64,000 nucleotides of DNA from the IMG/VR virus record IMGVR_UViG_3300037189_022865, positions 1 to 64,000 of that record. The stretch is one strand, 5' to 3'. The notes below the pieces were generated by a model. That model was given only the letters and a program-made list of their open reading frames with translations. It was not told the origin of the DNA and searched no databases. This document shows positions 747-16,534 of the stretch, piece by piece; the first letter of the stretch is position 1, and each line of letters starts with the position of its first letter. The position numbers and the translations under genes are program-made. This DNA comes from a virus.

Positions 747-3167
747 CTATTTGGATGATTTTCTAGCTTTTATTTTAAGGTCTTTCTCTTTTAGGTCTGA
801 TTCTTTTTCAAATTTCTTTTCAGCTAAATCAAGTTCTCTCTCACGTAGATTTTGATCCGAAATAAATTTCTGTATCTCGAGTGGATCAGGAATACCGTTA
901 TTATCTATATCAATATCCTTTTGGAATTTAAATACTTCTATCTGAGCTAAACGTTCTTTATGTTCAAAGAGCCTGTCTTGCATCATTATATCAAACTGTT
1001 GTTGAGCTTGTTGCTGCTGTTGGGCTGCTTCTATTTGCTGCTGTTGAGATTGTTGTTCCCGCTTAAAGGTTTCTTCTTCAGACTGTCTGATAGCCGCTTT
1101 AAGTTCGGCAGAAGAATTCGCTTCGTAAAGAGTAATAAGATCAGAGAATGTAGCGCGATTTGTATTAAGTAGGCCATCAGATATACTTTTAAGAGCTGAG
1201 AACATTTCGTATTCTTTGCCAGAGTCTGTAAGGAAAACACCTAGGTCGCAATTAGAAACATCTTCTGGAGAAAGTTCAAGTGTAGAAAGAGACATATCAT
1301 CTAACACGTACTGCTTAATAATCGACTTACCTTTCCAAACGTGCTGAGCAACATGGATAAGAGCAGTTAATGCTTTTTCCCACATCTTGGCATGGCTTTG
1401 GAAGTATATCTCAGTAATAAGAGCTGACATTTGTATATTACTCTGAGCATTTGATACAGCTTCAGTTGGAGTAGTTTGTCCTTCTCTTTGTCTAGATACA
1501 CCGGCTACTTCAGAGATCTGGTTATCAAGAGCTGCAAGTATATTAATGTAGTTCATTATATACTGCATATTCGACATATCTGTTTCTGAAGCTATCTTAC
1601 CTCTTTGAGCTTGTCCTGGTTCATCCGCATTTGCAAGAGGATTGAATATATCAAGGTTCATTTCCTTAAGATAATAGAGTGTTTTCTCTATACCAATTTT
1701 TGGATCAACCATAGATACATCAAAGTGGAATACCTTACCTTGATCTTGAGCAATGAGCTTTTTAAGCTTATGCATTACTATAAAGTAAAGATACTGAAAA
1801 GGTTTCATTCTATCCATCAAGGAAACAGACTCAGCATTTGTAGCATTATAAACTATGCCATGATATCCTAAGGAAACATCATAAGGATCGTCCATAGATC
1901 TAAACTGAACTTCTTTAGGGCCAACCATAGTGTAAATATCGTGACCTATTTTAGTAGCGGTCCATACCTCTGGAATATAATCCCAATTAAGTTTATATAC
2001 GGAATCTTCTAATTTCCAAATGTAGTACTCAGTCTTTACACCATATCTACCACGAACTATTTCTTTGGTAAACTCAGTGGGGATTTCAAAGTCCTCAGAA
2101 ACAATAGTAGTTTCTTCTTCACCATACTCATTAAACATAGTAAGAAATCCTACTTTTCTTTGGGATACCCATTCAACGTGTGATACACGCACGTCCGTGT
2201 GCGAGCTTTTTCCATAAGATCCTTGGGTAGTTGTATAAGTATCGTGATAGACTGGATCATAAGGAAGATTACCATACTTGGCGTTTTGCTCCATAGAAAA
2301 TTCTCTAAGTGCATTTGTATCACCAAAAGCAGTATCTATCTTCTCAATATCTTCTTGAGATAAATACTTTCCATAACGATCTAGTACCTCTGCTTGCGTC
2401 ATAAATGTAGTATAACCAGCGTAAAGAGATTTTTGAATCCACTTTGTTTCTCCACTCTTATGGTAGAAAAATCCTAGTGGATTAATAACTTCAATATGTG
2501 GTTCATCTCCATTAGTACCTACATAAACTACTTCTTCTCCAGATATAAGGGCATGCTTAAAAGCATCGGTCTTAATATCTTTTATATCCATTTTACGATA
2601 AAGATACTGAAGAATATTTTGAGCAAGTATTTCTCTCCTTTCACGATAAGAATACCTCATATATTTATCAAGATCTTTTGGATTAATGATATGCTCTTGA
2701 TGAACTTCTAAGAGCTCTGGGGAATAAATGTCAGAGAGAGAAGAGATTGTTTGTTTTATTACAGAATCAATATAATTACGAAGCATTGCATCTCTTTGGG
2801 AGAGCTTTGAACGAACTCCTTCTGCGTTTACTAATATTGTCCTAAAGTTAAAGGGCCTTTTAGATTCATCAGAAAGAAGTATTTGTATTTTATTATAAGT
2901 CTTATTGTAGGGTTGTATAGCGTCTTTAAATTGACCTACATCAAGTCCTAATGGGTTACACTCTCTTTCAAAATCAAACTGGTTTAGCTGATTATTGTAA
3001 AGTTGGTAATTTGATAATTTTCTTTGGTAGGAAGAGTTATACTTATTCACAACTCCTTCATCTTGAGGAGAGTATGACAGTATAGAATCTACCACATCCT
3101 TTGCCCACTTAAAGTTACTAGAAGCTTTACGTGAATAAGGAAGGCGTTGTTTTGGGAAGTTGTACAT
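747..3167 (-). CDS. Portal protein (crAss-like)
   Basis: 806 aa, begins FPKQRLP..K, has a C-terminal Q-rich coil and DIDNNGIPD; directly downstream of TerL; no in-frame TGA. Confidence 0.85.
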   Translation of the reverse strand: MYNFPKQRLPYSRKASSNFKWAKDVVDSILSYSPQDEGVVNKYNSSYQRKLSNYQLYNNQLNQFDFERECNPLGLDVGQFKDAIQPYNKTYNKIQILLSDESKRPFNFRTILVNAEGVRSKLSQRDAMLRNYIDSVIKQTISSLSDIYSPELLEVHQEHIINPKDLDKYMRYSYRERREILAQNILQYLYRKMDIKDIKTDAFKHALISGEEVVYVGTNGDEPHIEVINPLGFFYHKSGETKWIQKSLYAGYTTFMTQAEVLDRYGKYLSQEDIEKIDTAFGDTNALREFSMEQNAKYGNLPYDPVYHDTYTTTQGSYGKSSHTDVRVSHVEWVSQRKVGFLTMFNEYGEEETTIVSEDFEIPTEFTKEIVRGRYGVKTEYYIWKLEDSVYKLNWDYIPEVWTATKIGHDIYTMVGPKEVQFRSMDDPYDVSLGYHGIVYNATNAESVSLMDRMKPFQYLYFIVMHKLKKLIAQDQGKVFHFDVSMVDPKIGIEKTLYYLKEMNLDIFNPLANADEPGQAQRGKIASETDMSNMQYIMNYINILAALDNQISEVAGVSRQREGQTTPTEAVSNAQSNIQMSALITEIYFQSHAKMWEKALTALIHVAQHVWKGKSIIKQYVLDDMSLSTLELSPEDVSNCDLGVFLTDSGKEYEMFSALKSISDGLLNTNRATFSDLITLYEANSSAELKAAIRQSEEETFKREQQSQQQQIEAAQQQQQAQQQFDIMMQDRLFEHKERLAQIEVFKFQKDIDIDNNGIPDPLEIQKFISDQNLRERELDLAEKKFEKESDLKEKDLKIKARKSSK

Positions 3168-5367
3168 TGAATAGTCTGGTGTTGTTTACAAATAACCTAT
3201 CAAAGTCTTTCTCAAATTGAGAAAGCTCCTTATCGGTTATGGATTTTTTGCGACTAAGATTGGATATTTCTTCTAGACCTAAAACACATCCTATTAACGA
3301 AGATACCCTATCAAAGTTGCCATCGAGGTTATAAGAGATTAATTCTTGTAATAATCCTATATCGGGTATTACATCTAAATTGCGTCTATTATCTCCTCTT
3401 TCTTCTAAGAGGAAAGAACGAACATATTGAAGTGCTTCTCATTTAACTTTATCGTTTGATAGGGGGTAACCATAAATAATCTGGGGCCCTGTATCATAAG
3501 AAGCTTTTTTATTAAAAATAGTAACTGGTTGTCTAGCCAAAAGATCTAGACGGCGTATTTTATCAAAATAATCTTTTACGTTACCTACGTTATTCTCAAA
3601 GTATATTTTAGCATTACCATAAAACAAGGAGAGTTTGTATAACGTCTCATTAACTTGATTTTTACCTAAGTAAGGTCTACCTATATATGTAGCAACTATT
3701 TCTGAATATCCAACAGTGGAAGGATACTTGTTAGTCTTCATAACATAGACGGCAGCTAAAGATCCACCAGTTGAAGTATCATCTTTATAAGGGTCACAAC
3801 CTATTATATAAGCTCCTTCTGGAACATGATCATCTACTAGTTTTGGGAATTCGTATATCATAACCGCTCCTTCTACATCATCTCCTTCGTAAGGAAATCT
3901 TGTTATAGCAGTTAGTTTAGTATTTATTTCATAACTAACTCCATTATAAACTTTAGCGGCGGGATCAAAAAACAGAGTCACTTTATTAGAGTAATCCTCC
4001 ATCTTTTGAGATTGCACTTCTGAAAGACGTCTTCTAAGTTCTGCTGTTGGGAATATATTAGCAGTCTTGGTTAAGAACATTTCTGAAGGAACTATTGGAC
4101 GATATTGAAGCTCTTTATTTAAAGCTTCGGAACCACCTGAATCTCCAGCTTTTTGTTTTCTAACCTGAAGAAGGGCTTTTTTAGCTGCCTCTTCATTTGT
4201 AACTCAGTTCTCATCTTTATACTCATTAAGAACTTGGTAAGCTGGTAGAAAGTATCCTATTTGACCCCTATGCTCCCATATATCTTCAAACGTTAAGATA
4301 TCATATCTGTTAGGTTCGTAAAACATTTCAGAAGCATCAATAGTTCCTTTCTCCATATCACCACCAGTACCAATCATCATAAGCATACCTGTTTTCCTAA
4401 GACCGTTACGAAGGTTATCCACCGTATTTGTATAAACCTGTTTTAAGTTGGAGAACATACCTATCTCTTCTAATACTAAAAGAAGAGGTCGAGTACCTTG
4501 AGCTGCAAATGGGTTAGCAGAAAAAGACCTATGCTTAATAGATGACTTAGATCCCGCAATTATCCAAGCTCCATTCTCACGTTTTTTATACTCAGCAACT
4601 ATCTCTTTATTAACATCCCAAGATCCCCTGAATCTTTTAGAAAAAGGAGCTGGGTAGGTCCTGTCAAAAGTAGATATCTTACCGGGAAGCCAATCAAATG
4701 CATCCCTTGTCTTTTTAAGTAGATCTGCTGATTTATCTGACTTTTCAGCACCAACTAATATCTCAGCTGGGGAGGGATACTTTATACTTTCTTCATTATA
4801 ATAAGTAGCTCCATCAAAAAGATAGTTGTGTGCTATAAGTCCCGATACCTGATAAGACTTACCAGATTCTCGAGATCCAAGAAGCATAAAATTCTGTAGA
4901 TTATTCTCAAACAGAGGAGCACCTAAGGGATAATCATAGGTTTGGAATAAAGCCTTTCGCGCGGGAATGTAAGTTTTACGAGAACCTGTGGAAGACATAG
5001 TATTTGGATAATACTTTAATAAGGTATCATCATCTATATCTGTTAAAAGTATTCTATGAGAGGAGTATTCATCATCGTCTTTAAAACCAGAGAATCCACG
5101 GGCTTCGGTGTAATAATTAAAAAAGTTATATTCTACATCCCTGAGTCAAGGTCTACCAAAAGACTTTACAGATGAGTGAATAGATTTATTTAGCCTTATT
5201 GTATGGAAGTTTATATAATAGTAAAGGGCTGGGGGAACAAATGTCCCGCCAGCCCAGTAACCTTCGATACAACGCCGTTTCTGTTCGCGTCAAAATGTTT
5301 TATAATCTATTGATAGAGGATGATACTCAGGGACTTCTTTTATTATAAAGTCTCTGTTATTGAACAT
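3127..5367 (-). CDS. terL: Terminase large subunit, 746 aa, with 4 in-frame TGA read as Trp
   Basis: Track ORFs 3439-4080 and 4204-4998 share a frame and are joined by TGA at 5290, 5146, 4204 and 3439. Motifs: YKTF*REQKRRCIEGYW, Walker A GSRESGKS, Walker B LVLEEIG, nuclease IIGCDPY, C-terminal GNFDRVS. Confidence 0.92.
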
Positions 5368-6967
5368 AGTCTGGTGATGGTGGAGTATATGGGGGCGTCC
5401 TATCTACATTAACCATCGCAGTGTCAGAAAGAATTATCATATTAGCTGCAGAAACAGCATTCTTAACTGCTTGTGTAACTACCATAGTTGGATCAATAAT
5501 ACCAGCTGCTTTTAAATCTTTATACTCAAAGCTTTTAGCATCGAATCCAAAACTAGTGTCCGTGGACGCCTCTAATGTAGCAAGTACCATATCTGGGCTC
5601 TTACCCGCATTAAAAACTATACGTCTAAGTGGCTCTTTTATAGCATTAACGTATGCTTTTGTTATAGGATCATCAGTAGTTATCTTAGATGAAGCATAAA
5701 GAAGTGCAGTACCACCTCCGGGGAGATAACCTTCAACGATTGTTGCTGCAATAGCTTTAAGAGCATCTTCTACCCTATCTTTTTTCTCTTTTAATTCTGT
5801 TTCTGTAGCAGCCCCAACATTAATAATTGCTACTTTAGCTTTAAGATCCGCAAGTCTTTTCTGATACTGTTGTAAAAGATATGGATTATCAGAATCTTGG
5901 AGCATTTTAGAGTTTATTAATTGAACTCTTTGGTCAACCTTATCAGCGTTTTTATCTGGATTAATAAATACAGTCTTATCTTTAGAGATAACTACCTTTT
6001 CTGCAGACCCAAAATTAATAGGGGAAACATCAAGGGTTGCTCTAGAGGCATCTGTTGTTGTAAATATGGTAGAAGAGGTTATAGCCGCAAGATCTTGAAG
6101 CAGTTCCGCTCTATTTTCTCCATAAGAAGGAGCTTCTACAGCAACTACAGATATTCTTTGTTGTAACTTATTAATTATAAGGAGCTGTAAAGCTTGACCA
6201 TCAATAGCATCAGCAATAATAAGGAGCGGCTTTCTACGAGATGCTGCATACTCCAAAATTGGGATTACTTCATCTGTGTGTCTAAGCTTATTATCAGTAA
6301 TAAAAATAAGGGGGTTTTCTAAAACTGCTTCTCCTTTAGCGGAATCTGTAATAAAATAAGGTGAAGCATAACCTTTGGATATAGATACTCCAGGTACAGT
6401 CTCAAGATAAGTGTTACCTGTCTTAGATTCTCCCATAGACACTAAACCATCTGTACCAACATACTCATAAGCAGAAAGAATGAGGGCACCAATGTCAGAA
6501 TCATTATTAGCAGATATAGTAGCCACATCATAAATATCTTGTGGCTTAAGTTCTCCAGTAGATAACTTATTAAGCTGTACAATAGTCTGGTGTTTTAAAG
6601 TCTCAAAGACTCTTTTAATTTCTATGGGTTGATAACCAACAGAAATAAGTTTAAATGCCTCTTGTACTAAAGCCGAAGCAATAACAGTTGAGGTAGTAGT
6701 ACCATCTCCAGCAGTAGAAGCAGTTTTAGCAGCAGCTTGCTTAAGAATATCCACAGCTAAGTTCTCAACTGGATCTTCTAAAGCTATATGTTTAGCAACT
6801 GTTACACCATCTTTAGTTACAGTAGTTGCTCCATAGGGAGTTTCGATTATTACATTCTTACCCATTGGTCCTAATGTAGATCCAACAGCATTAGAAATTT
6901 TTTCTACACCTTTAAGTAATTTTTCTCTTGTTTCTTCTTTAAACGTAACTTGTTTAGTTGGCGTCAT
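5357..6967 (-). CDS. groEL: Chaperonin GroEL
   Basis: TLGPMGKNV, TKDGVTVAK, AGDGTTT, GGGTAL and GIIDP motifs. Confidence 0.97.
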   Translation of the reverse strand: MTPTKQVTFKEETREKLLKGVEKISNAVGSTLGPMGKNVIIETPYGATTVTKDGVTVAKHIALEDPVENLAVDILKQAAAKTASTAGDGTTTSTVIASALVQEAFKLISVGYQPIEIKRVFETLKHQTIVQLNKLSTGELKPQDIYDVATISANNDSDIGALILSAYEYVGTDGLVSMGESKTGNTYLETVPGVSISKGYASPYFITDSAKGEAVLENPLIFITDNKLRHTDEVIPILEYAASRRKPLLIIADAIDGQALQLLIINKLQQRISVVAVEAPSYGENRAELLQDLAAITSSTIFTTTDASRATLDVSPINFGSAEKVVISKDKTVFINPDKNADKVDQRVQLINSKMLQDSDNPYLLQQYQKRLADLKAKVAIINVGAATETELKEKKDRVEDALKAIAATIVEGYLPGGGTALLYASSKITTDDPITKAYVNAIKEPLRRIVFNAGKSPDMVLATLEASTDTSFGFDAKSFEYKDLKAAGIIDPTMVVTQAVKNAVSAANMIILSDTAMVNVDRTPPYTPPSPDYVQ

Positions 6968-7184
6968 TTTGTAAATCTTTTAATTTGTCCAAATTAAGGG
7001 GTGAATTTTTATACCAAGTATTAGGATGATGATTCTTAACGTGAGTAAGTAAGTTCATCTTTAAATTAGATGTCATAGAATCAACATAAGTATCCATTTT
7101 ATGGAATTCATCCTGTGGTATTGTTACAGAAAGCTCTTGCTCGTATGGCCAAAGCTCATATTTAATTGATACTTTGATCTTCAT
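6954..7184 (-). CDS. Hypothetical protein
   Basis: ORF in operon; ATG 7184 preferred because it avoids overlap with the upstream small ORF. Confidence 0.55.
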   Translation of the reverse strand: MKIKVSIKYELWPYEQELSVTIPQDEFHKMDTYVDSMTSNLKMNLLTHVKNHHPNTWYKNSPLNLDKLKDLQNDAN

Positions 7185-7191
7185 TTTGAGT

Positions 7192-7329
7192 TTAGTTAAC
7201 TCTATAGAGCCAATTTGCAATATCTGCGTCGTGCACAGCGTCTTTTTGTGTAACCATATTCATTCTGTACTCAGAAAGAAGATAATTACCAAAGTCTATG
7301 AGTTCAGTAAGTGTAAATTTATTTTCCAT
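7192..7329 (-). CDS. Small hypothetical protein, 45 aa (not in ORF track)
   Basis: MENKFTLTELIDFGNYLLSEYR...VHDADIANW; start overlaps the previous stop (TAATG). Confidence 0.6.
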   Translation of the reverse strand: MENKFTLTELIDFGNYLLSEYRMNMVTQKDAVHDADIANWLYRVN

Positions 7330-7628
7330 TATATACTTGTGTCTAAGGTTGGTTTTGGTGGCGTATCATTTTCTATACTTATACCACCATCGTTATCAGG
7401 ATTGATCATTTTAAGTAGATTTTCTGCTTGTACTTTAAGATAATAAGTATTACCATCCGTAGTAGAGATAGCAGAATATCTTTTTAAGTCATCTGGAACG
7501 TCTGTGTCTTTTACAATCTTTCTAATAGTAACTATTTGAGACGTATTTATCCATATTGGTATTTCAAAAAAGGAATTCTCTTCTAAAGAATCCCCTTCAG
7601 CCATTAATAGTGAAGTTTTTATCCACAT
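7329..7628 (-). CDS. Hypothetical protein
   Basis: 99-aa ORF with A-rich leader, co-oriented with the operon. Confidence 0.6.
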   Translation of the reverse strand: MWIKTSLLMAEGDSLEENSFFEIPIWINTSQIVTIRKIVKDTDVPDDLKRYSAISTTDGNTYYLKVQAENLLKMINPDNDGGISIENDTPPKPTLDTSI

Positions 7629-7643
7629 AAAATTAAGTTTTAG

Positions 7644-7736
7644 CGAGGGCTGAGGGAATCGAACCCCCGCACGCCTTTTGGAAGGGCGTGTTCAGCGATT
7701 TTGAAGATCGGTTAGTACCCAGCTACTGTAGCCCCC
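7644..7736 (-). tRNA. tRNA with UCA anticodon (opal suppressor candidate), type II long variable arm
   Basis: Acceptor GGGGGCT/AGCCCTC plus G73; D stem AGTA/TACT; anticodon arm CGAT-CTTCAAA-ATCG (anticodon 7702-7704); variable stem CACGCC/GGCGTG; T arm GGGGG-TTCGATT-CCCTC; CCA not encoded. Confidence 0.88.
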
Positions 7737-7741
7737 GTAAA

Positions 7742-7839
7742 GCCGCTATGGAAGTTCCCTGAATCTTACGACTAGGGAACCGGGTCCATAAACGACTGTT
7801 ATCAGTTTTTCCCGCTGTAATTTAAATACTAGGGCGGGA
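7742..7839 (-). ncRNA. Structured RNA candidate between thyX and tRNA(UCA)
   Basis: Hairpin TCCCGC..GCGGGA and a long interrupted hairpin GTCGT-TATGGA-GTTCCCT-AGTC(GTAA)GATT-AGGGAAC-TCCATA-GCGGC. Confidence 0.4.
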
Positions 7840-7894
7840 CCCTGTATCCTTCTCTTTTCTGGCAAAAGTTAAAATGAAGGCTTCTATACCACGA

Positions 7895-8608
7895 CTACCC
7901 AATAAGTTCAGGTTTATCAAATCCCCATGCTTCTAATGTAGCTTTAAAAGGAGCGTTTTCTAAATTATAAACTATGGAGAGCATTTCTCTAGCAATTTCT
8001 CTTATCTCTTTTTGAGCGTGATCATCCATCCTTTGATTAATAAAATTATGAAATGACCGCATATTAAACATAACATCCGCTGTTATCTGCGAATTATAAG
8101 TCTTAAAAAATCTAGCTGTTTCTTTAGCTCTTTTTCTACCAAGAACTGGTGTAAGTTCTTTAACAGCTTCATGATAATAAACATTCCCAAGTTTTGTATA
8201 CTCCTCTAGTATAGACAGAAGATCTTTATGGAATCTCTTAGACTTAACACCTTTCCAATCTTCTGGTAAATAGTATTTATCTTCTTTAAGTTCTTTATAT
8301 CTAGCTGACTCAGCATTAATAGAGGATATTCTATGCTTTAATAAATGTATGTGTGAAGCAATATCCGTAGTAACTAGGAAATGAACAATTCCCTTCTCAA
8401 ACGGAGATCCATGTGGAACTGGATGTGCATCCCAAAGCTGTTTAATTAAAGCGGGAATACGTTCTTTCTTTTCTGGAGTTAAATCTCTAGACGTAGATGT
8501 CCATGCAGAAAGAGCTATTACTTCATCTGAACCATAGTAACCTATAAGTTCAACTTTATTTGTGGAGGCGGCGGGAGTCGAACCCGCGTCTTCAGTATTA
8601 CTTTTCAT
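7895..8608 (-). CDS. thyX: Flavin-dependent thymidylate synthase
   Basis: HGSPFE, HLLKHRISSINAESARY (RHRxxS..SxR-type motif), R...HAQKEIRE. Confidence 0.93.
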   Translation of the reverse strand: MKSNTEDAGSTPAASTNKVELIGYYGSDEVIALSAWTSTSRDLTPEKKERIPALIKQLWDAHPVPHGSPFEKGIVHFLVTTDIASHIHLLKHRISSINAESARYKELKEDKYYLPEDWKGVKSKRFHKDLLSILEEYTKLGNVYYHEAVKELTPVLGRKRAKETARFFKTYNSQITADVMFNMRSFHNFINQRMDDHAQKEIREIAREMLSIVYNLENAPFKATLEAWGFDKPELIG

Positions 8609-8808
8609 TAACCTTTAAGTGTGATTTAATTTAAGCGTAAACTAATTCTAAAATTTCTACCTCTTGAGAAACGTAGCTGGTAGAGTTCTCCGGCACTATA
8701 AGTGCATCTGCGTAAGAGTTGTCATTTATTGTTATCTACTTAAGGCGTAGACGACCTTCATCACAGTTAATGTAAGCACTATATACCAAATCAATACCAG
8801 GCGCCCCC
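8563..8808 (-). ncRNA. ssrA: tmRNA (transfer-messenger RNA)
   Basis: 5' GGGGGCG pairs with 3' CGCCTCC-A giving G3:U70 Ala identity; T arm GCGGG-TTCGACT-CCCGC; tag ORF 8723-8631 after ATAAAT reads DNSYADALIVPENSTSYVSQEVEILELVYA*. Confidence 0.88.
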
Positions 8809-8830
8809 ATAATAGTGGTGAAGAACACCA

Positions 8831-9328
8831 CTAAATTTCTCCTTTTTCAGAAGCAGATTCCTCTAAATCTCCATGAGTTTTAGTTTGACGTTCTTTAGCT
8901 AACCGCTCTAAAATAGATTCATACTGATCCCATAATTTGGGAGTATTTGCAACCATCTTATCTTTAGCTTCAAAGGTATCTAAAGAATAAGGTATAGAGG
9001 AAATAAACTCATCTCTTTCATGTAGCGTCTTTTCCCATCTCATAAGAGCCCTTTCTACTTTAGTAAGTAGATTATCTTCTACAAAAGAAAGAAGATCAGA
9101 GTAGGACTCCCATGAGAAGGAAGGATCAGAGATAAGGTAATCCTTATAAATAAGTTCTTGGCGTTCTTTAGGGGAAAGCTCAAAGAACTTAGAATCAGGG
9201 TGCGCGTATAAAAATATTGCTCATAAATGTTCAGAGGGTATTTCTAAAAAATCTTTTAATAGAACTGACAACTCAGGATTAGTAGAGAAAAAATCCTTAT
9301 GTATATCAAAACTATTTAGGAGCGTCAT
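8831..9328 (-). CDS. Hypothetical protein, 165 aa, 1 in-frame TGA (possible small terminase)
   Basis: ATG 9328; TGA at 9221-9223 in SEHL*AIFLYAHPDSKF; continues in frame into track ORF 8831-9043. TerS identity is positional inference only. Confidence 0.7.
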
Positions 9329-9671
9329 TTTGAGGTTGCTTCTGTATCAGATCTTTAAACTCCTTAATAAGGGAAACAATTTCTGCAATAGTAAGCATTA
9401 GCTCTTTCCAATGGAAAAGTATAGTCATTAGATTCGGCTTACGTAATGCTTGAGGAGCAAGACGAGTCTCAATAGTTACCAATCTATTAAGTGCTTCTTG
9501 AGCAATTGCTTGCATTTGATTGGTCTGTTGTTTAGCAGTCTCAAGTTCTGCTTTAGTGTTTTCTAGTTCTAGTGCAGTTTGGTTCATCTCTAAATATATT
9601 GGTGATTCTTCTAAAGAAGAAATGTTTTCTACAACTTTAGGAGTTTTATTAGCTTTTGGTTTATTTTTCAT
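9312..9671 (-). CDS. Hypothetical coiled-coil protein
   Basis: 119-aa ORF overlapping both neighbours. Confidence 0.6.
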   Translation of the reverse strand: MKNKPKANKTPKVVENISSLEESPIYLEMNQTALELENTKAELETAKQQTNQMQAIAQEALNRLVTIETRLAPQALRKPNLMTILFHWKELMLTIAEIVSLIKEFKDLIQKQPQNDAPK

Positions 9672-10041
9672 CTTTAATAATAGCTTCTATAAGTGAAGTA
9701 GGTATAGATATATATCCATCAAAAGAAAGGATCTTTGTTGAACGATCAATAAAGAATTGATACTGGGGGGAAACAGCGTGAGTAGATACATATACCCTAT
9801 CACCTACTTGTAAATCAGTATTCTCCTTAGAAAGAAGATCTTTAGCGTGAGGAGATATAGAAACTACAGTACCTTGTGAAAGATAGGTAAGATCAGAAGC
9901 TTTAGCTTTAAGCTTACCTCCATCTGTTTCCTCATAAGTAAACTGAGGTATCAATAACCCCGATGAAGTAGTAGTGTGCTCTGGTTCCTTATCTAGGAGT
10001 ACAAGAACTCTATTACCTATAAGATTAATATTAGTTAACAT
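9661..10041 (-). CDS. groES: GroES-like co-chaperonin
   Basis: LIGNRVLV..., TSSGLLIP, GTVVSIS, LQVGDRVY match the Cpn10 pattern; ATG 10041 preferred. Confidence 0.8.
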   Translation of the reverse strand: MLTNINLIGNRVLVLLDKEPEHTTTSSGLLIPQFTYEETDGGKLKAKASDLTYLSQGTVVSISPHAKDLLSKENTDLQVGDRVYVSTHAVSPQYQFFIDRSTKILSFDGYISIPTSLIEAIIKDEK

Positions 10042-10213
10042 ATACTTCAATAAGTTTTGAGAGTGCTTTTTCTGTTTGTTCTTTAAGAAGAGTAGAATCA
10101 GTAGTCTTAAGTAGTTCTGTAAGTGCTTTAATAGAAGCAATATGAAACTCTCTTTGTGAATTTACTTGCTGAACAGTCTCTTGTGGAAAGACCGGAGTGT
10201 TTTTCTGTGCCAT
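10031..10213 (-). CDS. Hypothetical protein
   Basis: 60-aa ORF tightly packed in operon. Confidence 0.55.
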   Translation of the reverse strand: MAQKNTPVFPQETVQQVNSQREFHIASIKALTELLKTTDSTLLKEQTEKALSKLIEVYVN

Positions 10214-10215
10214 AA

Positions 10216-10557
10216 TTAATGATGCCAGGAACCAAATCGTTCCTTATAATTTTTAGATTTATAATATTGATAAACTTGATGCCTTATCTTAAGGGCTGAT
10301 TGAAACAATTTAACTTCAGTGGGGAATCTATTCTTACGAAGCTTAATAAAGAGATGCCTCATCATATTCCTAAATCCTCCAGGCTTAAGTACTAAAGAAC
10401 CTAAGTCTTCTAACCTAAATCCTACGTACCTAATATTCTTATAATTATCAGAGATAACTTTAAACTGAAAATAAATAACGTGTTTTACTTTATCCTCAGG
10501 CATCTTAAGTAGAAGGGAAGTCTGCTTAATCAGCGGCTCTATTGAGGAGAGTAACAT
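10216..10557 (-). CDS. HU/IHF-like DNA-binding protein
   Basis: Two N-terminal helices followed by FRLEDLGSL beta-arm motif; crAss-like phages carry IHF-like genes in this module. Confidence 0.55.
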   Translation of the reverse strand: MLLSSIEPLIKQTSLLLKMPEDKVKHVIYFQFKVISDNYKNIRYVGFRLEDLGSLVLKPGGFRNMMRHLFIKLRKNRFPTEVKLFQSALKIRHQVYQYYKSKNYKERFGSWHH

Positions 10558-16405: not shown

Positions 16406-16534
16406 AATAAGGTTTAATAGTGAGAAGGAAGAATCTTCCCAAAAGAGGGAGGGTTCTTTTTTTAAGTTAAGAGGTTCAAAGCCCTCATAAAGAGTGATGA
16501 CGTAACAACGTAAACTCGCTTAACTATAAAAAAC

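Follow-up and report, generated by a model that had tools for sequence, protein, structure and literature searches.

A compact one-piece tmRNA gene with a 30-codon tag frame, and its relatives in crAss-like phages

We describe a gene for transfer-messenger RNA (tmRNA) in the IMG/VR virus record IMGVR_UViG_3300037189_022865. The DNA examined, hereafter the window, is the first 64 kb of this record of 90,596 bases, which is rated 92% complete. In the window ARAGORN calls a one-piece tmRNA gene of 247 nt at 8562-8808 on the minus strand, whose nt 86-178 encode a tag of 30 residues, DNSYADALIVPENSTSYVSQEVEILELVYA* (nt n of the RNA is window position 8809-n). The Rfam model RF00023 spans 8560-8808 on the same strand end to end (model positions 1-374, 62.9 bits for a gathering score of 47, E 3.6e-22). 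An earlier note on this DNA had proposed a complete tmRNA with a G3:U70 pair and a 30-residue tag at 8563-8808 (246 nt), and had named these two detectors as a check. Both call the gene, the ARAGORN tag is identical to the one proposed, and G3 lies opposite U243; the 5' end at 8808 stands, and the gene called by ARAGORN is 1 nt longer. Given the Rfam E-value and the conservation in six other phage lineages described below, a chance origin of the tmRNA is excluded. ARAGORN finds two RNA genes in the window, this tmRNA and a tRNA with the anticodon UCA, tRNA(UCA), and the same two alone in the whole 90.6-kb record. The gene is called unpermuted and colinear by ARAGORN, and no model of a circularly permuted (two-piece) tmRNA matches the window at gathering score. 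Nor does it fall in the class lacking a coding sequence (CDS), of the type of phage DS6A, since it holds a conserved frame of 30 codons.

The dimensions of this RNA are unusual: it is shrunken, and its tag has three times the customary length. The 75 bacterial tmRNAs that ARAGORN calls among 120 loci sharing its last 28 nt, a convenience sample, measure 302-401 nt (median 355) and carry tags of 9-11 residues. The phage copy, which the earlier note had described as compact and long-tagged, lies outside both ranges. The commonest tag length is 10 residues according to a tmRNA database paper (PMC11915505). The shared 28-nt 3' end matches at least 120 bacterial loci of many phyla and is for that reason uninformative as a clue to the host. 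When the tmRNA minus these 28 nt was compared with the same bacterial loci by blastn, all 13 high-scoring segment pairs were at chance level.

Relatives were searched for in viral contigs with three baits, GroEL (23 loci), the conserved gene upstream of the tmRNA (10 loci) and the terminase (43 loci), and ARAGORN and Rfam were run over those loci and over 49 + 5 whole records. The identical tmRNA gene is present in four near-identical contigs, and homologous tmRNAs of 235-386 nt, with tags of 30-41 residues, occur in six further lineages (Table 1). GroEL identity across the seven lineages goes down to 52%. The acceptor stem is fully paired with G3:U in all of them and shows compensatory changes, as do the T-stems, which covary (GCGAG/CUCGC, AGCGG/CCGCU, GAGGG/CCCUC). 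Automatic detection is incomplete: ARAGORN finds two of the seven lineages (this phage and L056), Rfam scores four above the gathering score (this phage, L052, L056 and L104) and gives 38.2 bits to L053 and 22.6 bits to L108, and the copy of L010 was recognised by eye after an Rfam match to the T-arm alone. A MAFFT alignment of the seven RNAs is reliable only for this copy, L104 and L052. The genomic context is also shared. Upstream of the tmRNA, one and the same conserved gene is present in this phage, L052, L053, L055/L056, L108 and L010; it directly precedes the tmRNA only in this phage, L010 and L108, and a small open reading frame (ORF) stands between them in L052, L053 and L055/L056. In six of the seven lineages a tRNA(UCA) follows on the same strand, 123-1343 nt downstream. 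Other phages carrying GroEL have tmRNAs of ordinary size with tags of 13-24 residues, and window positions 7000-10500 have no blastn match among GenBank phages. A degenerate pattern built on the 5' end matched 20 viral stretches, four of which held the tmRNA (the near-identical contigs); the other 16, where ARAGORN finds neither tRNA nor tmRNA, were set aside as chance matches. Rfam also matches a group I intron (RF00028, 50.5 bits for a gathering score of 50) at 5126-5317 of the related phage contig L054, next to a sequence whose start resembles a tmRNA 5' end.

Table 1. Features of the tmRNA locus and tmRNAs of the related lineages. Positions are those of the window unless a lineage is named.
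Feature	Position	Strand	Basis or remark
tmRNA, one-piece	8562-8808	-	ARAGORN and Rfam RF00023
Acceptor stem, 5' strand GGGGGCG, nt 1-7	8802-8808	-	G3 at 8806
Acceptor stem, 3' strand CGCCUCC, nt 239-245	8564-8570	-	discriminator A at 8563
T-arm GCGGG / UUCGACU / CCCGC, nt 222-238	8571-8587	-	Rfam; canonical, 5-bp stem
Helix 2a, nt 19-26 with nt 211-218	8783-8790 with 8591-8598	-	8 bp; helix search and constrained fold
Helices 2b (nt 37-44/196-203) and 2d (nt 45-49/184-188)	8760-8772 with 8606-8613 and 8621-8625	-	helix search, constrained fold
Putative pseudoknot 1 (PK1), stem 1 nt 51-54/64-67, stem 2 nt 58-62/70-74	8735-8758	-	followed by 11 nt, then the resume codon
Resume codon GAC (Asp), nt 86-88, after AAUAAAU	8721-8723	-	ARAGORN consensus; Rfam resume region, high posterior
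Tag codons 2-30 and UAA stop (8631-8633, nt 176-178)	8631-8720	-	ARAGORN; coding constraint
Helix-5-like hairpin GCAC-UUAUA-GUGC inside the frame, nt 103-115	8694-8706	-	Rfam alignment
Hairpin UCUACC...GGUAGA inside the frame, nt 125-130/147-152	8657-8684	-	inspection
Hairpin, 8 bp, 4 nt upstream of the tmRNA 5' end	8813-8833		scored terminator-like on the + strand only
Conserved gene of unknown function, 2 TGA as sense	8831-9388	-	3' end directly before the tmRNA
Cpn10 (GroES)-like gene	9661-10140	-	Pfam Cpn10, E 1.6e-06
ThyX ORF	7895-8608	-	Pfam Thy1, E 7.2e-31; first 47 nt overlap the tmRNA 3' end
tRNA, anticodon UCA, 94 nt	7643-7736	-	ARAGORN; 825 nt downstream of the tmRNA
GroEL-like chaperonin gene	5357-6967	-	Pfam Cpn60_TCP1, E 1.7e-61
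806-residue ORF, no Pfam match	747-3167	-	at the position of the portal gene in phi14:2
tmRNA of L104/L106			262 nt; tag DNSFEPALLVPKNSTRFVPQEVEIEVVSTVYA
tmRNA of L052			386 nt; tag DNAYEPALPVPEMSTLSVEPEVETLEYAYAYV
tmRNA of L055/L056			281 nt; tag DNNTNDFGIGLPSFSTEAVAPSVTQEQPVYQYA
tmRNA of L053	L053 2607-2936		330 nt; tag DNNTSDFSLELPEFFATENAPSVPQEQFEYAYA
tmRNA of L108	L108 1503-1737		235 nt; tag GNTTYFAIEIEDFHSYVPQEDVTVPEFEYQLV
tmRNA of L010 (complete 103-kb genome)			243 nt; most likely tag DESLSFAASIPSWAVTYIQAAPLTSTADDQVEAPELLEVLV

In the tRNA-like domain all seven acceptor pairs form between nt 1-7 and nt 239-245, and G3 opposite U243 is the equivalent of G3:U70. The 3' tail reads ACAA in the DNA, so that CCA is encoded only in part and has to be completed after transcription. 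Helices were compared among lineages by helix searches, constrained folds and inspection. The equivalent of helix 2a begins at nt 19-20 in five of the seven lineages in the helix search; L056 has an 8-bp version with a 1-nt bulge, seen by eye, and L108 only a 7-bp segment (nt 24-30/196-202). Helices 2b and 2d have the same layout, with a different sequence, in the constrained fold of L104. A linker of 11 nt, rich in A and U, joins the putative PK1 to the resume codon. Of the two hairpins inside the tag frame, the helix-5-like one has no in-frame stop in its loop; its stem is identical in L104 and L052 and its loop differs. The other has a U-A pair in L052 where this copy has C-G, which makes one compensatory change, and reads CCUCUAC/GUAGAGG in L010. 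The motif UCUAC...GUAGA, noticed on reading the sequence, is present twice in the tmRNA, in PK1 stem 2 (8735-8751) and in this in-frame hairpin (8657-8684), so that alternative long-range pairings are possible. The 69 nt after the stop are filled by the 3' strands of helix 2, the T-arm and the acceptor.

Taken together, the lineage shows a series of progressive reductions of the tmRNA. After the tag stop L052 keeps ~200 nt with several hairpins, whereas this copy and L104 keep none. At the site of PK1 most relatives have just a hairpin. L108 and L010 are bare there as well, with nothing between helix 2 and the resume codon.

A singular feature of these RNAs is the long tag, and the evidence that its frame is read is of several kinds. 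The frame is open for 30-41 codons in all seven lineages and the other two frames are interrupted; shuffled frames stay open in 0.26-0.38 of trials per sequence. The ratio of nonsynonymous to synonymous differences (pN/pS), taken over three comparisons (this copy with L104, L104 with L052, L056 with L053), comes to 0.49 for the tag frame; reading these aligned columns with a shift of 1 or 2 bases gives 1.05 and 0.99. The constraint extends over the whole tag, with 0.46 in codons 1-20 (1.04 and 1.03 in the shifted frames) and 0.54 in the remainder. Pairwise dN/dS values of the tag frame are 0.62, 0.46, 0.35 and 0.12, and the tags of this copy and L104 differ in length by two whole codons. The seven tags can be aligned: they start with D/G-N, most have a Pro near position 11, and five of the seven lack basic residues. 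Their ends (VYA, VYA, YAYAYV, YQYA, YAYA, YQLV and EVLV) are nonpolar, mostly of an aromatic-Ala kind and otherwise Leu-Val. In this copy the tag is acidic, with 7 acidic and 0 basic residues, and ends in ...ELVYA; such an aromatic-Ala end looks like an ordinary degron end, as far as its residues tell. In all seven lineages the tag stop is UAA or UAG, never UGA. The frame of this copy opens on a resume codon instead of a start codon. The resume context is UAAAU|GAC or UAAAC|GRY in six of them, and AAUAAUC|GAC in L056. In L010 an alternative short frame (VITLYTLLA) was set aside because the resume context of the family fits the 41-codon frame.

Where might such a tag come from? A close likeness is to the Bacteroidota type of tmRNA (RF00023), as found in an Alistipes metagenome-assembled genome (L137). 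With it the phage RNA shares the tRNA-like domain with G3:U70, helix 2, an identical 28-nt 3' end, a resume codon after an A/U-rich linker and a frame ended by UAA. The start of the tag, DNSYA, resembles that of the Alistipes tag, GNNSYALAA, which suggests that the long tag might be an ordinary short tag whose stop was lost. The differences are large: 247 nt against 401 nt, a tag of 30 residues against 9, no pseudoknots 2-4 and a marginal PK1, and a gene encoded by a phage without a SmpB gene. We consider it probable that the gene belongs to a tmRNA lineage of crAss-like phages in which a short Bacteroidota-type tag has been extended to 30-41 residues and the pseudoknot ring is being lost.

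The closest cultured relative, Cellulophaga phage phi14:2 (NC_021806.1), a crAss-like phage of a Bacteroidota host (Cellulophaga baltica) with a large terminase (TerL) that is 35% identical, also has a one-piece tmRNA, at 4031-4500. It differs from the one described here in lying elsewhere in the genome, in its size of 470 nt and in scoring just below the Rfam gathering score (46 bits for 47). ARAGORN gives it a tag of 11 residues, from a late resume point in a longer frame; counted from UUUAAAC|GGA, a resume context like that of L108, this frame has 38 open codons and ends in LAMVA. ARAGORN finds no tRNA, hence no tRNA(UCA), in the whole phi14:2 genome. Neither tRNA nor tmRNA is annotated over the first 50,000 bases of its RefSeq record, a part that includes the site; 4031-4500 lies in a region from which small hypothetical ORFs were removed in 2020. 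Phage surveys thus under-count this group, of which ARAGORN sees two of seven lineages and Rfam four of seven, and whose phi14:2 member has no tmRNA annotation in RefSeq.

Phage tmRNAs and long tags are both already known, and the combination found here is an unusual variant of them. One survey gives tmRNA genes in 402 of 18,146 phage genomes, two-piece forms included (PMC9004378), and tmRNAs are reported from huge phages (PMC7162821). Like the present gene, those of Methylophilales phage Melnitz, pelagimyophages and huge phages are described as complete genes in lytic phages. They are permuted two-piece or full-size, whereas the present gene is colinear and combines a small size with a long tag. 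A permuted tmRNA, with a tag of 13 residues, is annotated in the gut crAss-like phage cr50_1, so that RefSeq already includes tmRNAs of Crassvirales. Mycoplasma tags share the length of ~30 residues and a nonpolar end with those described here, a likeness that we note with no claim of homology. Their end presumably alternates aromatic and Ala residues, as in several of the relatives. The Mycoplasma tmRNA is full-sized, unlike the copy here. For long tags of the Mycoplasma type the protease is Lon, not ClpXP. The 27-residue tag of Mycoplasma pneumoniae is a working Lon degron (PMC8403727), a precedent for efficient degron function in a tag of such length. Reduction has a precedent as well, since mycobacteriophage DS6A has a CDS-less tmRNA made of the tRNA-like domain only (PMC11915505). 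Both are phage-borne reduced tmRNAs, but that of DS6A has no tag frame, whereas 30 codons are conserved here. Among the papers listed by searches of open-access PMC articles and bioRxiv, none describes, in its title or the opening of its abstract, a one-piece, pseudoknot-poor tmRNA lineage with tags of 30-41 residues in crAss-like phages.

We consider it probable that the gene encodes a functional, phage-encoded, one-piece tmRNA. A number of observations weigh against this. Alanylation, SmpB binding and tagging are predicted from the sequence alone. Pseudoknots 2-4 typically lie between the tag stop and helix 2 in the tmRNA family, although they are not essential. They are absent here because just 5 nt separate the stop (UAA, nt 176-178) from the 3' strand of helix 2d, which starts at nt 184; the earlier note had rightly seen that little room was left for them. 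The putative PK1 has just 4+5 bp, a weak structure that the relatives do not conserve; its stem 2 is found in the constrained fold and partly aligned by Rfam, and its stem 1 was found by inspection only. The unconstrained minimum free energy fold is not the canonical structure (z = -1.94, with 6/200 shuffles folding as well). T-loops are aberrant in two relatives (CGCAACU instead of UUCGAnU in L053, a 6-nt loop in L108), and parts of the lineage may for this reason be decaying. The tmRNA is dispensable in this clade, since four relatives, G026 (99% complete), G033 (95%), G035 and G043, have the upstream gene and no tmRNA match (ARAGORN over 1.5 kb downstream, about the first 680 nt also read). 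The only canonical in-frame start of thyX, ATG at 8608, lies inside the tmRNA (nt 201-203) and after an in-frame stop at 8615-8617, and the Thy1 domain starts at residue 20, directly past the tmRNA end. Hence 3' processing of the tmRNA and translation of thyX may be mutually exclusive, unless thyX has a non-canonical start. Finally, nucleotide conservation within the tag frame largely coincides with the hairpins. RNA structure therefore contributes to this conservation; the shifted-frame pN/pS control argues that it is not the whole cause. With small numbers and hairpins that also constrain the frame, the long tag is well supported by these comparisons and short of proof.

Some of these observations would also fit other accounts. 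If the RNA were a decoy, binding SmpB, AlaRS or EF-Tu of the host and thereby blocking its trans-translation instead of completing it, the loss of the pseudoknot ring and the absence of SmpB from the phage would be natural, and there is a precedent in DS6A, whose tmRNA-like RNA without a tag inhibits the cell's own tmRNA in E. coli (PMC11915505). A decoy has no need of a frame, though, and here one is open in seven of seven lineages, with a pN/pS of 0.49 against controls of ~1.0 and a degron-like end followed by a stop, which makes this explanation improbable. It is very improbable, too, that translation resumes later in the frame to give a short true tag, for example of about ELVYA after the UCUACC/GGUAGA hairpin, the upstream codons being structural RNA only. 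Such a reading would account for the coincidence of conserved nucleotides with hairpins and for the presence of UCUAC...GUAGA both in the putative PK1 and in the in-frame hairpin, and in phi14:2 ARAGORN does pick a late resume point, with 11 residues, inside the 38-codon frame. Yet ARAGORN and the Rfam alignment alike place the resume codon of this copy at nt 86, the putative PK1 ends 11 nt upstream of it, its context recurs in six of the seven lineages (the seventh being L056), and codons 1-20 alone have the low pN/pS given above, 0.46 against 1.04 and 1.03.

We give the least credit to the view that the gene is merely what is left, in decay and without present function, of an ssrA gene captured from a host or of an attachment site. 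Lost pseudoknots, a patchy distribution in the clade, the odd T-loops of two relatives and a 28-nt 3' end identical to that of many bacterial tmRNAs are what one would expect of a relic. But the gene is complete rather than a 3' fragment, its tRNA-like domain is intact and covaries across seven lineages whose GroEL identity falls to 52%, and its frame is under coding constraint. In addition, strain variation in three DNA runs amounts to 1 listed variable site in the 247 nt of the tmRNA, against 23 in the neighbouring thyX (7955-8498). The variable site, 8746 C>T, is G63A in the linker of PK1.

The phage has further peculiarities of translation. Several of its long genes, among them those for the large terminase (4 TGA codons), DNA polymerase A (2) and an 1169-residue protein (2), are open only if TGA is read through. 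The terminase is closest to that of phi14:2, a member of the Crassvirales (35.1% identity, 97% of the query covered), and the remaining 147 matching phage records are mostly from crAss-like and Flavobacterium phages. By this kinship the virus is taken to be a crAss-like phage of 90.6 kb, and its host would, from the crAss-like relationship only, belong to Bacteroidota. In the terminase alignment, Trp prevails among the other homologues at two of the four TGA codons; one column has Trp in all four standard-code homologues, the other Trp in six, Lys in phi14:2 and TGA in L075. Of the remaining two, one is on a variable, mostly aromatic column and one on a Gly column. TGA codons in the terminases of relatives also fall mostly on Trp columns, and TGA therefore stands mostly for Trp in this phage. 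That TGA is a sense codon here, as the earlier note had implied, is thus supported by the alignment. The TGA on the Gly column is codon 388 of the terminase (3127-5367, minus strand); the 8 other terminases all have Gly there, and this is either an alignment shift or an exception to TGA as Trp. The terminase of G026 holds 2 in-frame TGA codons, yet G026 has no tmRNA match. About 560-620 nt past the conserved gene in G026 (L237) there is a tRNA-like element of ~60 nt, CCCGGUG ... GGUUCGAGUCC ... CACCGGG, which ARAGORN does not call.

If the RNA is a functional tmRNA, as we favour, how might it work? No SmpB (PF01668) and no RF-1 domain (PF00472) were found in the 90.6-kb genome, and the RNA must therefore work with the SmpB, AlaRS, EF-Tu and release factors of the host. 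The gene would be transcribed together with its minus-strand neighbours, and the transcript trimmed by host tRNA-processing enzymes. As the gene encodes ACAA, a host enzyme would complete the CCA. Host AlaRS would add alanine by virtue of G3:U70, and SmpB and EF-Tu of the host would deliver the charged RNA to ribosomes stalled with an empty A site. Translation would resume on GAC at nt 86, adding Ala and 30 residues that end in ...ELVYA, and UAA would terminate the tag and free the ribosome. Most likely the tag still marks the product for a host protease, to judge from its end. Phage tmRNAs are thought to sustain host translation (PMC9004378, PMC7162821).

The likely use for the phage, which is speculation, is that ribosomes are kept free during infection. 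Non-stop complexes would be common then, both from the decay of host mRNA and from read-through of TGA stops by the phage suppressor tRNA. The substrate of a tmRNA is a ribosome whose A site is empty, and rescue aimed at TGA codons in particular, which the earlier note had proposed as a possibility, would be a further step. In recoded E. coli, ribosomal rescue plays a part in resolving ribosomes at stop codons left unassigned (PMC6207430), and by analogy it is reasonable that a phage suppressing UGA creates an extra demand for rescue. The tie to recoding proposed by the earlier note has partial support only, being strengthened by the tRNA(UCA) that follows the tmRNA in six of seven lineages and weakened by phi14:2, which has a relative of the tmRNA and no tRNA in its genome. 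Hence the link between tmRNA and suppressor tRNA is not obligatory, and a role in the TGA code switch is plausible and unproven. The Borges et al. preprint on stop-codon recoding in phages has 0 occurrences of 'tmRNA'.

One may go further and combine all of this. Bacteroidota crAss-like phages would then have an undescribed tmRNA lineage in which the host tag of ~10 residues has been replaced by a conserved acidic tag of 30-41 residues with an aromatic-Ala end. Every pseudoknot would be in the course of being shed, down to the PK1-less forms of 235-243 nt in L108 and L010, which would be natural minimal tmRNAs. Together with the UGA-suppressor tRNA, these RNAs would clear ribosomes that read through host TGA stops, and the long tag would send the products to another protease, or another fate, than that chosen by the host tmRNA. 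Taken as a whole this scenario is rather unlikely. Quite apart from it, should these RNAs function, they would reveal how small a part of the pseudoknot ring a tmRNA needs in vivo, at most PK1 in this copy and none in two relatives. The phage lineage appears to have re-engineered the tag, so that tag length and choice of protease become testable outside Mycoplasma. And the near-constant pairing with a UGA-suppressor tRNA offers a concrete hypothesis joining stop-codon recoding to ribosome rescue.

Sequencing runs tell something of where the locus occurs and whether it is expressed. Positions 7500-9400 were found, with at least half of the sampled words, in 19 DNA runs. Leaving aside the possible source study, 10 DNA studies hold them, mostly labelled freshwater or aquatic metagenome, and three fungus metagenome. 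One freshwater metatranscriptome run has four contigs on the stretch, two of them on the tmRNA (8665-8800, that is nt 9-144, and 8561-8590), and in the contig at 8561-8590 adapter sequence abuts the predicted 3' end of the tmRNA. With contigs at a depth of 2-5 and possible carry-over of DNA, this is only a hint of tmRNA expression. The RNA run X20 has no cover at 7692-8523 (thyX) and 8844-9163, which at that depth, and in contigs, is no evidence of silence. A spike of depth at 8524-8587 in runs X6 and X17 was not used, being consistent with contigs of other organisms that share the 3' end of the tmRNA (loose ends, short pieces).

In the order of transcription, the minus strand carries the Cpn10-like gene, small ORFs, the conserved gene, the tmRNA, thyX and tRNA(UCA), followed by two small ORFs, GroEL, the terminase and the 806-residue ORF. 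The earlier note had placed the tmRNA in one transcription unit with tRNA(UCA) and GroEL/ES. The genes are co-directional; a single unit with these neighbours is plausible, because the minus strand from 9400 to 7600 has only one weak terminator-like site, inside thyX. Matches to sigma-70-type promoters are no commoner than in shuffles (18 against 20.4). The hairpin upstream of the tmRNA could be a processing or termination signal; similar G/C-rich hairpins stand just upstream of the tmRNAs in L052, L053 and L056. The tRNA(UCA) has no Rfam tRNA match at gathering score. Its extra arm is long, with CCA in the loop as drawn by ARAGORN. Its counterparts are also long in L052 (94 nt) and L104 (98 nt), and measure 72-77 nt in L053, L056 and L010. 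Elsewhere in the window, 16463-16526 on the plus strand matches the twister ribozyme Type-P3 (Rfam RF03154, 48.1 bits, gathering score 39.9, E 2.9e-07).

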